Both the position numbers and the translations under genes were made by a program. A stretch of DNA of 39,970 bases from a virus: UHGV virus genome UHGV-0404708, one strand, 5' to 3'. Positions 14,796 to 36,799 of the stretch are shown here, one piece after another (the first letter of the stretch is position 1; the number at the start of each line of letters is the position of its first letter). Under the pieces are notes generated by a model that saw nothing but the letters and a program-made list of their open reading frames with translations, searched no databases and had not been told where the DNA came from.

Positions 14796-15515
14796 TCAGA
14801 AGAACCCTGCCTTGTCGTTGATGTACTCCGCGTGCGTCTGGATATCACGCAGGCATTTGCTCACACCGACGATGTAGCAGAACATGGTGGTCAGCTCCGC
14901 CGCCGCGCCCGATACGTCGTGCCCGTCGTCCTGTAACTGGTTCAGCAGATTCATCAGCAGTGAGTTCTCAGTCAGGCCGAGAACACCAGACGGGGAATGA
15001 ATCAGGCTGCGGTAGCCGGGCTTCAGCGGGGCACTGTATTCTTTTTTGTCTTCCAGCTTGATCGCCTCCATAATGGCGGGCATGAATTTTTCAATTACCT
15101 GAGTGGCCTTTGATAAATCAGCTCCACCTGAGAGACGAACATCTCCACTGACATTTGCGGGTTTTCTGTCGAAGTAGCAATCTTCCAGTTTTTCGAAGAC
15201 CTCCCACGCTTTTTCAGTCTCAAGAATTTTCGCATGTCGTGCTGCACCGCGAGCGGTCCATAAGAAAAGATGACTTACTTTTGGTGCAATATTAAGCAAA
15301 CCTCTTTGAGAGGACTCGTTCTTAAATGCTCGTAATTCTTCGCCTGTCAGCTTGAAACAATGTTTTCCCTCAATGAATCGATCTGCATTTCGTTGATAGT
15401 TTTGACGAATCAGTTTGGGTTCTGTGTCATACAAATCAGCAAGCATTTCTGTAGTCATTACAGGGATGTTGCAATGAGTTGTTATCGGCAACTTATCAAT
15501 AGCTATATTACGCAT
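14796..15515 (-). CDS. ORF6N-domain protein with C-terminal domain paralogous to 16329..16586 (antirepressor-like)
   Basis: Track ORF 14796..15530; ATG 15515 preferred (SD GGAGG, 8-nt overlap with upstream stop); N-terminus fits the ORF6N/KilA-N-type DNA-binding pattern; C-terminal ~60 aa align with the 85-aa protein. Confidence 0.65.
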   Translation of the reverse strand: MRNIAIDKLPITTHCNIPVMTTEMLADLYDTEPKLIRQNYQRNADRFIEGKHCFKLTGEELRAFKNESSQRGLLNIAPKVSHLFLWTARGAARHAKILETEKAWEVFEKLEDCYFDRKPANVSGDVRLSGGADLSKATQVIEKFMPAIMEAIKLEDKKEYSAPLKPGYRSLIHSPSGVLGLTENSLLMNLLNQLQDDGHDVSGAAAELTTMFCYIVGVSKCLRDIQTHAEYINDKAGFF

Positions 15516-16014
15516 TTTCATTGCCTCCATCTTTCACGACGAAATAGCAATTATCTTTATAATCTAACTGGATGAACTTTATGTTTTCAGGGAGTTTTAC
15601 AGAAAGAGTTTTTGCACAAGCAAAACCAAAATCTGCGCCAGAAGCATCCATATACCTTAATAATTGTTTTAATGCTGAAGGAGAAAAAGTATCTACCTTC
15701 ACCTCAACAGGGTAACCATCTTTTGTTTTTAGGTCTGGTTGACCTGGTCCACCAAGTATTTCAGCGTTAAGGTATTTTGCTATTTCTGGATAAGCGTTGT
15801 ATTCAGAGCGTAGTTTTGCCTTGTTATCGACTGCTAGTTGCATAAGATGATCAAACAAATTGGTATCTAAATCTGCCCCTTCATCCCACATTCTATTTCT
15901 ACAGCTAATCAATTCACTGACCAGAGGTGCACTTTCTTGCCTTAGCATAAGAAGGAGTGGAGAATTAGAAATTAACCAATACAGATCGTCGTTTGAGATT
16001 TTTTGGCCTGGCAT
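15508..16014 (-). CDS. hypothetical protein, possible PD-(D/E)xK-like motif
   Basis: 168 aa; SD AGAGGT 7 nt before ATG; segment GQPDL...YPVEVK resembles a D...E-x-K nuclease motif (weak); translationally coupled to next gene. Confidence 0.6.
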   Translation of the reverse strand: MPGQKISNDDLYWLISNSPLLLMLRQESAPLVSELISCRNRMWDEGADLDTNLFDHLMQLAVDNKAKLRSEYNAYPEIAKYLNAEILGGPGQPDLKTKDGYPVEVKVDTFSPSALKQLLRYMDASGADFGFACAKTLSVKLPENIKFIQLDYKDNCYFVVKDGGNENA

Positions 16015-16328
16015 AGCGATACCTCTACTAGTAAGTTACCCACCACCGCAACGCCAATTGCTGGTGGTGAACTGGACAAGGTTGGCGTACCGGCCTAGTA
16101 GGTACCGGCGCACCTTTCGGTGCCCCTGCCCAGCCCACCATAATTCGGATATGACTGTGCTATACGCATAAAAAAACCACGTCTGGCGTGGTATGCGCCT
16201 ACTAGTAATCCGGGACGCCAATCCCGGCACTGGATTTTGCCAGTGCCCGATTACTATGGCACAAGAGGAGTGCGATGTAAATTTACCGCAAAGGTAAATA
16301 TAAGCACTCCACTTGGTAATTGCAAACC
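16015..16328 (-). ncRNA. heavily structured intergenic element (candidate ncRNA or cis-regulatory leader)
   Basis: 314 nt without convincing ORF between two minus-strand genes; at least five stem-loops, two with identical hexaloop, one GNRA-type loop, an internal hairpin plus T7 run, 8-bp direct repeat GTACCGGC x2. Confidence 0.35.
16170..16192 (-). terminator. intrinsic terminator-like hairpin inside the structured element
   Basis: Minus sense ACCACG-CCAGA-CGTGGT followed by TTTTTTT; T-tract itself flanked by complementary CGCATA/TATGCG. Confidence 0.4.
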
Positions 16329-16586
16329 TTATATGGTTTGTTTTCGTAATTGTTCGGCACAATAGTCGAGATGTGTTTGCAGATCCCGCATAGACATCTG
16401 TGAGCTGGTGACGTAGTTAATCAGTGCAGTCAGTTCGGCAAGTGGGCCATCGACATTAAATCCATCCTTATCGAGATCCCGGAGTAATTTCATCAAGTGC
16501 GATCCCTCCACCAGTGACCTGACGCCTCCCGGCGTGTGAATCCTTTCGGTAAATCCGTCTTCCAGTGGATAGTGATACCGCTGCAT
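16329..16586 (-). CDS. small protein (85 aa), paralog of the C-terminal domain of 14796..15515; LexA-controlled
   Basis: Track ORF 16329..16604 (TTG); ATG 16586 with SD GGAG 8 nt upstream; LexA box and sigma70-like promoter immediately upstream. Confidence 0.65.
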   Translation of the reverse strand: MQRYHYPLEDGFTERIHTPGGVRSLVEGSHLMKLLRDLDKDGFNVDGPLAELTALINYVTSSQMSMRDLQTHLDYCAEQLRKQTI

Positions 16587-16607
16587 CTTATCATCTCCAT
16601 GCAATAA

Positions 16608-16623
16608 CTGTATAAATATACAG
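16608..16623. promoter_or_regulatory. LexA (SOS) box
   Basis: CTGTATAAATATACAG; 20-mer AACTGTATAAATATACAGTA matches the E. coli consensus TACTGTATATATATACAGTA at 18/20. Confidence 0.8.
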
Positions 16624-16632
16624 TACCAAATA

Positions 16633-20697: not shown

Positions 20698-20870
20698 CAT
20701 GGCATTTTTCATGGTACTGATTTTCGGTGACGGTATATAAAACGGTATGGTGAAAATCAAGTTGCGGAAAGTTGTTATCAGTCAATTGGTTATGTATGTC
20801 GTAAATAATTGAGTGGGAATGATTAACAGCTAACTCATAGCAAATCATTCCTATTCAGATGCCAACTCAA

Positions 20871-26619: not shown

Positions 26620-27204
26620 TTATTGTTTGCTTTTTTCGTTCTGGTTGATGACAAATTCAATGTAACTTTCGATCTTTGCTTTCTCGGTTTCGGGTAACAA
26701 TGCGTAGCGCGAGCGGTCATAGTTGATGGTCGCAGGGTCGTGCGGGTGAATCAGTAATTCATAGCCGTGACGCCCGAATGCGGATGCAACATTCTCCAGG
26801 GTGGAAATGGAAACGCTGACCTCATTGTTTAACAGGCGGCTGATTGTCACCTGGGCGACGCCGGATGCGCGGTGAAGTTTTCCCTGCGTTGAAAGGTCGC
26901 GGCTTTCGCTCATCCAGCGTTCCAGGTTGTGAGCCGCCAGCTGACCAATGTCGCTTGGGCCGACAGGCTGAAAACCTTCCTGAGAAAGCGAGCGATCGAT
27001 ATCAAGCCAGTTACGGGGTTTATTGGCGGCAGCTTCAATTTTTCGTGCAACCTGGTCGCCGATAACCTTCTTGCCAAGAGCCCAGCGGTTTACCAGATTT
27101 GCCTGAGTTCCAAGTTTTTCTGCCATCCGCGTCTGAACACCATTGAATTCACGGTCGATCAAGTCGTTGAGATTTTGCCTGCGGACGTCCTGGATACTTT
27201 TCAT
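26620..27204 (-). CDS. immunity repressor with two HTH-type segments, no autopeptidase domain
   Basis: 194 aa; HTH-like segments near aa 24-46 and 120-155; divergent from Cro-like gene across operator region; no Ala-Gly...Ser...Lys LexA-type cleavage module. Confidence 0.7.
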   Translation of the reverse strand: MKSIQDVRRQNLNDLIDREFNGVQTRMAEKLGTQANLVNRWALGKKVIGDQVARKIEAAANKPRNWLDIDRSLSQEGFQPVGPSDIGQLAAHNLERWMSESRDLSTQGKLHRASGVAQVTISRLLNNEVSVSISTLENVASAFGRHGYELLIHPHDPATINYDRSRYALLPETEKAKIESYIEFVINQNEKSKQ

Positions 27205-36722: not shown

Positions 36723-36799
36723 TGGCGTGGCATGCAGGATTCGAACCTGCGACCAACCGCTTAGAAGGCGGTTGCTCTGTCTAACTGAGCTAATGCCAC
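36723..36799 (-). tRNA. tRNA-Arg (anticodon UCU)
   Basis: Minus-strand read GTGGCATTAGCTCAGTTAGACAGAGCAACCGCCTTCTAAGCGGTTGGTCGCAGGTTCGAATCCTGCATGCCACGCCA folds as cloverleaf: 7-bp acceptor, GCTC/GAGC D-stem, ACCGC/GCGGT anticodon stem with loop CU-UCU-AA, GCAGG/CCUGC T-stem with TTCGAAT loop, encoded CCA. Confidence 0.9.

Follow-up and report, generated by a model that had tools for sequence, protein, structure and literature searches.

A P1-type C4 antisense RNA module with an IsrK-type leader in front of an antirepressor operon of an E. coli prophage-type genome

The viral genome UHGV-0404708, whose whole length of 39,970 nucleotides is called the window here, contains a spacer at positions 16015-16328 between two genes of the minus strand, on which all the features discussed below lie unless another location is indicated. 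The gene before the spacer is a small one of 85 or 91 aa (start at ATG 16586 or TTG 16604, end at 16329), and the gene after it encodes a protein of 168 aa (15508..16014), its end being overlapped by the gene of a 244-aa ORF6N antirepressor (14796..15530; Pfam ORF6N, E = 6.5e-20; phrog_1760 anti-repressor, E = 1.3e-97). The best relatives at the DNA level are podoviruses similar to phiV10 and epsilon15 (Uetakevirus), together with many E. coli prophages, and at least 80% of a 751-nt stretch containing the element is present in 374 of 5,426 complete E. coli genomes. No RNA is annotated at this region in RefSeq, in the phiV10 record or in the other best DNA relatives. Elsewhere in the window, a tRNA-Arg(TCT) gene is found at 36723-36799.

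The 168-aa protein gave no match in Pfam, NCBIfam or PADLOC and only an uninformative one in PHROGs (phrog_18738), its homologue search returned only 11 clusters of "hypothetical" proteins, and its AlphaFold model has a mean pLDDT of 44. Its family is tiny, is confined to Enterobacteriaceae and always sits between the leader described below and the ORF6N antirepressor gene. The 85-aa protein, in turn, shares 43% identity with the 74 C-terminal aa of the antirepressor and is a paralogue of this part of it. A near-consensus LexA box (16625..16606) covers the −10 element of the promoter of the 85/91-aa gene; the window has no other match to an SOS box (2 mismatches here, 0 matches expected), and this one is conserved at the same distance in 10 relatives. 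We regard the 85-aa gene as a candidate SOS-controlled small antirepressor gene, in a phage whose repressor is devoid of a self-cleavage domain. Tum of coliphage 186 and the LexA-controlled antirepressors of Gifsy and Fels-2 resemble this arrangement in context only, that is, in the small gene with an SOS box and the repressor without self-cleavage. In the relative ZX5, overexpression of the gene behind the leader promotes lysis, and overexpression of the HTH repressor blocks it (PMC9782041).

A sequence-only reading of the spacer had described it as an ORF-free and unusually structured element, a candidate non-coding RNA or riboregulator. The density of structure is borne out by folding: a 329-nt stretch of the minus strand reaches −140 kcal/mol, compared to −106 ± 4.5 kcal/mol for dinucleotide shuffles (z = −7.5), none of 100 shuffles folds as well, the individual hairpins have z-scores between −3 and −5.4, and every hairpin listed in that reading is found at its place on the minus strand. 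As for its nature, the region is indeed a non-coding RNA regulatory region; it is, however, neither one 314-nt element nor a new riboregulator, being a composite of a probable DNA operator with a promoter, a terminated IsrK-type leader, the antisense RNA C4 in a presumably processed form, and the target sites of C4. The possibility had also been raised that the spacer is a known element, such as a recombination site. It is a known element, although one made of RNA, and not a recombination site. The attachment site was considered and rejected, given that the attP core of phiV10/epsilon15, ATTGAGTGGGAATGATT, occurs as a single copy at 20808-20824, outside the region.

The first component is the 44-nt imperfect hairpin or palindrome noticed in the sequence-only reading (16310..16267; −16.4 kcal/mol, z = −5.4), which follows immediately on the stop codon of the small gene upstream. 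Its outer arms are fully replaced in the Enterobacter relative L125, and phiV10 has perfect arms of 18 bp. Since the L125 arms differ entirely and yet remain complementary (AUGCAAU/AUUGCAU), we think that the outer arms are under selection. The core of the hairpin, ATTTACC-N5-GGTAAAT (16281..16299), is retained in relatives with different outer arms and is a candidate operator of the phage repressor. The motif TTACC-N5-GGTAA, with at most one mismatch, occurs at 15 sites in the window versus 0.7 expected, including 14709, 16283, 16663, 20958, 26486, 26548, 27260, 27308, 27645, 29584, 29646, 33962, 33980 and 37122; two spurious ORF calls aside, 13 of the 15 lie between genes, and five surround, on both sides, the gene of a 194-aa repressor (27204..26620) that has two HTH domains and no peptidase (self-cleavage) domain. 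Judging from this distribution, the sites are probably the operator set of this phage. The first hairpin is thus probably, at least in part, a protein-binding palindrome of the DNA, and a DNA operator is its best reading because the core directly adjoins the −35 box of the promoter of the leader, in parallel with the C1 operator of P1 at c4.

The same position can be followed in the closest lineage, a set of 80 viral contigs (L128-L207) with an upstream small gene 98-100% identical to that of the window. In 37 of the 80 the whole module is absent and the 85-aa gene is followed, at the position of the hairpin, by a plain, classical intrinsic terminator, so that the hairpin may also serve as the 3′ hairpin of the upstream transcript. 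These terminators, together with the fifteen-fold repetition of the palindrome in the genome, would suit an explanation by DNA-level signals only (operator, promoters and terminator of the upstream gene) without any RNA regulator. Such signals, however, cover only 16310..16253, and the other ~240 nt hold compensated pairs of RNA type and co-varying intermolecular sites. Therefore, we consider this explanation very improbable.

The promoter of the leader/C4 transcript was located by a consensus scan as TTTACA-17-(TG)CATAGT (16281..16253). Its −10 element CATAGT (16258..16253) is conserved in 13 aligned relatives and aligns base for base, through the c4-a1b1 model, with the annotated −10 TATAGT of the P1 promoter P1c4/P51b. 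This alignment puts the predicted start near 16246, where the isrK match also begins. A second and weaker promoter, TTGCAA-17-TATATT (16325..16297), overlaps the operator and would be parallel to the operator-controlled P51a of P1; it was discarded, as it is not conserved in L125.

The stretch that follows the predicted start (16246..16170) is an IsrK-type leader formed by two hairpins, the sites a1 and b1, and an intrinsic terminator. In an Rfam scan of the whole window, it matched isrK (RF01394) with 68.1 bits, above the threshold of 50, over model positions 1-77. The 7-bp outer stem AGUAAUC/GAUUACU of the sequence-only reading (16255..16249 with 16210..16204) and the two hairpins enclosed by it (16246..16227 and 16226..16211) are all present here. 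Site a1, UUGGCGU (16221..16215), is placed in the loop of the second leader hairpin and is followed by b1, CUAGUAGG (16205..16198); both were recovered by an independent repeat finder as repeats D2 and D3. The Rfam motif c4-a1b1 (RF03163) at 16259..16207 reached 45.1 bits (E = 8.5e-10), which is 1.6 bits under its threshold of 46.7, compared to 51.0 bits in P1 and 48.1 bits in Gifsy-1, and this shortfall counts against the assignment to C4 control proposed below. By function, a1 and b1 do have the property that defines the motif, namely complementarity to C4.

The terminator has its stem at 16192..16176 and its U-run up to 16170; with the helix that brackets it, it spans 16198..16164 (−13.2 kcal/mol, z = −3.6), and the hairpin with its U7 (16192..16170) was also found by a pattern scan for terminators. 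The arms of the bracket, GCGCAUA (16198..16192) and UAUGCGU (16170..16164), stack on the terminator stem with the U-tract looped out in both the minimum free energy (MFE) and the centroid folds. The sequence-only reading had seen correctly the terminator with its U7 and the CGCAUA/UAUGCG bracket around it. Its suggestion that the two are mutually exclusive, as in an attenuator, fails because the bracket prolongs the terminator stem and because its 3′ arm appears in the RNA only once the termination point has been passed. The bracket is not included in the Rfam isrK model; nevertheless, a bracket of at least 5 bp is formed in 60% of 43 loci, versus 3% in displaced controls, with sequences that differ between loci, and P1 has the helix as well. 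As the 5′ arm overlaps the last two bases of b1, the bracket could mask b1 in the read-through RNA only. In more general terms, one could think of a cis-acting attenuator or a riboswitch sensing a ligand or a protein, for which dense structure and a terminator in a 5′ leader would be suitable. We give hardly any credit to this possibility: the bracket extends the terminator helix, with no mutually exclusive folds in the MFE and centroid predictions, Rfam returned no riboswitch family at E ≤ 1, and the antisense scheme accounts for every conserved element.

The C4 antisense RNA itself is found after the terminator, at 16145..16060. It matches Rfam RF01695 with 76.7 bits against a threshold of 45 (E = 1.9e-13) over the full length of the model (positions 1-87), so the Rfam search that had been recommended as a check on the structured element gave two families, C4 and isrK, above their curated thresholds. 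The C4 of P1 scores 68.8 bits with RF01695, and our own model R1 gives 100 bits to the C4 of the window. In the fold, a long closing stem encloses two hairpins, the first of which has a GNRA loop and is the GCACC-GAAA-GGUGC hairpin already noticed in the sequence (16123..16110). Among 69 distinct sequences, 96.6% of the pairing is kept, compared to 38-47% for slid controls, and 20 of the 28 pairs are compensated on both sides; in 11 hand-picked sequences, 94.3% of the cells are paired. The 8-bp direct repeat GTACCGGC of the sequence-only reading does occur twice (16087-16094 and 16102-16109), although merely as the two arms of C4 hairpin 2, given that its CCGG core is self-complementary. The loop of this hairpin is b′, CCUACUAG (16102..16095), and the single-stranded joint after it contains a′, ACGCCAA (16088..16082). 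The mature form is predicted to extend from 16139 to 16063 (77 nt), taking the annotated 77-nt c4 RNA of P1 as a guide. An acceptor-like stem followed by ACCA is kept in 12 of 13 aligned close relatives; phiV10 has ACCAACC and P1 has ACCU.

The targets of these two C4 segments are repeated on both sides of it. Upstream, a1 is an exact 7-nt complement of a′, and b1 is an exact 8-nt complement of b′. Downstream, the hairpin with an 11-bp stem that had been noticed near the Shine-Dalgarno (SD) sequence of the 168-aa gene (16069..16041; −16.1 kcal/mol, z = −3.7), whose 5′ arm overlaps the 3′ end of C4, carries in its loop a2, UUGGCGU (16057..16051), again an exact 7-nt complement of a′. It is followed by b2, CUAGUAG (16031..16025), an exact 7-nt match to b′ that abuts the SD sequence GAGGU (16025..16021), its last base being the first G of GAGG and lying 10 nt upstream of the ATG that starts the 168-aa gene. 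That b2 offers only seven contiguous pairs, a bulge being needed in order to cover the whole SD, has to be counted against control by C4. The two identical hexaloops UUGGCG pointed out in the sequence-only reading (16221..16216 and 16057..16052) are thus the a1 and a2 targets of C4. What that reading missed is the key logic of the region, in which the twin loops and the repeated CUAGUAG are the paired targets of an antisense RNA located between them. In a separate observation, the 3′ strand CACCACC of the C4 closing stem has two alternative partners, namely the 5′ strand of C4 and the GGUGGUG within the 3′ arm of the a2 hairpin. An intact mature C4 and a complete a2 hairpin are, therefore, incompatible within a single transcript, and P1 shows the same conflict.

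The spacer 16015-16328 is, therefore, an unannotated copy of the P1-type C4 antisense RNA control module joined to an IsrK-type leader. The RNA control region is real, conserved and probably functional. We collected 120 viral contigs by means of a C4 core pattern; the pattern fixed a′ as GCCAACC, and thus variation of a′ is visible only in second modules, in the 80-contig lineage set, in P1 and in Gifsy-1. In 92 distinct loci, an exact complement of 7 nt or more to the b′ loop of the same locus is found in the upstream flank in 61% of cases and in the downstream flank in 73%, compared to 3.6% and 3.3%, respectively, when the loops are swapped between loci. In most loci an ORF of real size has its start codon 7-11 nt after the end of the b2 match, and in 61 of 81 loci a UUGGC located ~22 nt before b2 is left unpaired by a local hairpin.

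Within the 80-contig lineage set the module has at least eight combinations of specificity. The b′ sequence CCACUUAG is accompanied in 16 loci by the a′ sequence CGCCAA and two copies of UUGGCGU, and in four other loci by GACCAA and two copies of UUGGUCU, which amounts to a three-way switch on the same b′ background. Five b′ variants each have a matching b2, and in four of them b1 is exact as well; in the variant CCUUUGUAG, b1 matches only partially or by way of wobble pairs. The sites of the L104 type are CCACUUAG/CUAAGUGG. The analysis of covariation that had been suggested for this region thus turned out positive, with the C4 pairs compensated and the antisense and target sites switching together in relatives, and the complements to each locus's own loop, the co-variation of the sites and the compensated C4 fold are hallmarks of an antisense RNA at work on its targets. 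As 37 of the 80 relatives lack the module, the leader, C4 and the cargo genes behave as an optional cassette behind a stand-alone gene. Of 76 other modules, half have directly behind b2 a gene of antirepressor type (Bro-N, Rha, P22-type or KilA-N). In the window this first gene is neither Icd-like nor an antirepressor, a point that speaks against the assignment to C4 control. Two of the viral contigs have two C4 modules each, with different a′/b′ specificities: L076 (3309-3393 and 6163-6251) and L096 (393-477 and 3060-3139).

One of the closest known systems is the immI region of P1 and P7, even if the C4 of P1 is too diverged in sequence to be recovered by BLASTN. In the P1 record the order is operator Oc4, promoters P2c4 and P1c4, a1, b1, the 77-nt c4 RNA, a2, b2, icd and ant1/2, and the window shares this order of parts, the three-helix fold of C4 and a nearly identical 5′ flank, AAUUAUGGUGGG. 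Also common to both are a terminator-like hairpin surrounded by a bracket, the presentation of a2 in the loop of a hairpin, and the position of b2 on the SD of a first gene overlapping with that of the antirepressor. The differences concern the host phage, which is an integrating podovirus here and a plasmid prophage in the case of P1; the first gene, of 168 aa instead of the 73-aa Icd, followed here by an antirepressor of ORF6N type; the sites, UUGGCGU/CUAGUAGG versus UUGACAG/GUUAGUG; and the leader, whose terminator is strong enough here for an isrK score, whereas the leader of P1 reaches only 35 bits with isrK. Variable specificity of the sites is the basis of the heteroimmunity between P1 and P7.

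The membership in the C4 and isrK families, the exact complementarities, the location of b2 at the ribosome-binding site and the co-variation of the sites are observed, and upon them a mechanism can be proposed in which the processing of C4, the translational block, polarity and the decoy action would be as in P1 and Gifsy-1. Transcription would start near 16246 from the promoter at 16281..16253, and the leader with a1 and b1 would be made first. Part of the transcription would stop at the terminator (16192..16170), releasing a 77-nt IsrK-type RNA, and the read-through would continue across C4 into the 168-aa gene and the ORF6N antirepressor gene. In P1, the excision of C4 from its precursor is carried out by RNase P, and C4 (~16139..16063) may be excised from the read-through RNA in the same way here. 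Its segments b′ (CCUACUAG) and a′ (ACGCCAA) would then pair with b2 at the SD and with a2 in its hairpin loop, and this pairing would block the entry of ribosomes on the 168-aa gene, the first gene under the proposed control. The overlapping antirepressor gene would be silenced through coupling or polarity, and the prophage would remain repressed. The a1/b1 sites on the leader and on the short RNA would compete for C4, in such a way that the threshold at which the antirepressor is made would depend on the leader-to-C4 ratio.

We are rather confident that an immunity module of the P1 immI type, with a translational block of the antirepressor operon by C4 and a leader that competes for C4, is the best explanation of the region. 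In this E. coli prophage-type genome, the module most likely keeps the antirepressor operon silent. The element would thus decide on the synthesis of the antirepressor and, hence, on the silence of this type of prophage. Its recognition points to a second layer of immunity in these phages, beside the HTH repressor, and makes it possible to predict which of their relatives are heteroimmune.

The experimental work on the Gifsy-1 prophage leads to a different picture that must be weighed. The isrK-orf45-anrP region of Gifsy-1 resembles the window in having a terminated IsrK-type leader with read-through into an antirepressor operon, and both have the same a1 loop, UUGGCGU. In the published mechanism, the short RNA activates by way of a translated "orf45" (Hershko-Shalev et al. 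2016, PMC4825925). Applied literally to the window, the short RNA would open in trans the ribosome-binding site of a small ORF on a read-through mRNA that is otherwise locked in an inactive state, ribosomes would couple to the downstream genes, and the C4 region would be an mRNA leader instead of an antisense repressor. The frame available for this role is one of 37 codons (16141..16028). It belongs, with a TTG frame of 108 codons (16362..16036), to the minus-strand frames of the ORF list, which correct the description of the spacer as ORF-free. The literal model has in its favor the isrK match of 68 bits, an AUG at the 5′ end of C4 that is conserved in 13 close relatives, the stop of the 37-codon frame 14 nt before the ATG of the 168-aa gene, a 20-nt stretch with 80% complementarity between leader and C4 that resembles the published helix b-I, and the support of experimental data (PMC4825925).

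The conservation of the frame argues against it. Family-wide, the AUG frame is open through C4 in a fraction of 0.67, versus 0.79 and 0.88 for the other frames, with scattered stops, and the lengths of C4 differ by non-multiples of three. With length differences that are not in triplets and an AUG frame no more open than the others, we see no sign of coding. A coding ORF across the whole region was rejected on similar grounds, its frame being unconserved and the length differences among relatives not being multiples of three. In addition, RNase P would, by homology with P1, cut inside that AUG, and the literal model leaves a2 and b2 at the downstream SD, as well as their co-variation, without a role. 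The window also departs from Gifsy-1 in that the 168-aa gene precedes the antirepressor gene and the small frame is unconserved.

In Gifsy-1 itself, the region directly after isrK, which comprises "orf45" and the processed RNA STnc1160, scores as C4 with 69 bits. The derepressing mutations published for it, G28A and G31A (PMC4825925), fall within a1, and the published partners that compensate for them, C162 and C159, fall within a′. The double mutants restored repression poorly (224 and 327 units versus 4 for the wild type; PMC4825925), which is what one would expect if a′ had to match a2 as well. Another result of the same work goes in the opposite direction: constitutive expression of STnc1160, the equivalent of C4, strengthened the toxicity of IsrK (PMC4825925), which counts against a simple picture of repressor plus decoy, as this picture does not predict stronger toxicity. 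All in all, we find it unlikely that the literal IsrK mechanism is the one at work in the window.

In the immunity system of phage P4, the CI RNA acts by premature termination of transcription and controls replication genes. The CI/seqA/seqC arrangement is like the window in that a small RNA processed from the leader pairs with repeats located upstream and downstream in the same transcript. By analogy, C4 might bind a1/b1 on the nascent RNA and raise termination 5 nt downstream of b1, limiting its own production and that of the operon, either instead of the translational block or alongside it. The spacing is suitable, b1 ending at 16198 and the terminator stem beginning at 16192, and so is the conserved and compensated bracket around the terminator, whose 5′ arm overlaps the end of b1. 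The parallel with P4 was also raised by the authors of the Gifsy-1 study (PMC4825925). On the other hand, RNA folding gave no evident alternative anti-terminator fold, and the presence of b2 on the SD in most loci would be left unexplained, so we assign a low probability to this form of control. Neither the literal IsrK mechanism nor the P4-like one is exclusive of translational control by C4, which we keep as the main explanation.

The C4 family is already curated and has been studied experimentally, and, thus, the locus does not reveal a new kind of system. What is added here is the unification of IsrK with the leader of P1, a cassette with many specificities and a conserved bracket, all of them of moderate interest to specialists. 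Given that "orf45" of Gifsy-1 has a C4 score too, IsrK and P1 would represent systems of one kind, and the literatures on P1 C4 and on Salmonella IsrK would describe the same module with mechanisms that sound opposite. A 2025 review still treats IsrK and c4 as two separate regulators, the two Rfam hits are noted side by side but left unjoined in a paper on APSE phages, and within the searchable literature we found no paper that states their equivalence. Tentatively, and with somewhat less than even confidence, we propose that IsrK is the a1b1 leader of P1, that is, a terminated decoy of C4 whose read-through sets the ratio of leader to C4 and the threshold of induction; that "orf45" is C4 and is non-coding; that the bracket makes the terminated RNA a better decoy; and that the whole is a mobile cassette with at least eight interchangeable specificities in one lineage. 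C4-like sequences are present in more than 200 phage records, mostly of Stx-converting phages and mostly without annotation. In public records, small frames annotated as "hypothetical protein" and located ahead of antirepressor genes overlie C4, examples of which are orf45 of the Gifsy-1 literature (34131-34214 in L124) and orf34 of VT2-Sakai (1563-1736 in L123).
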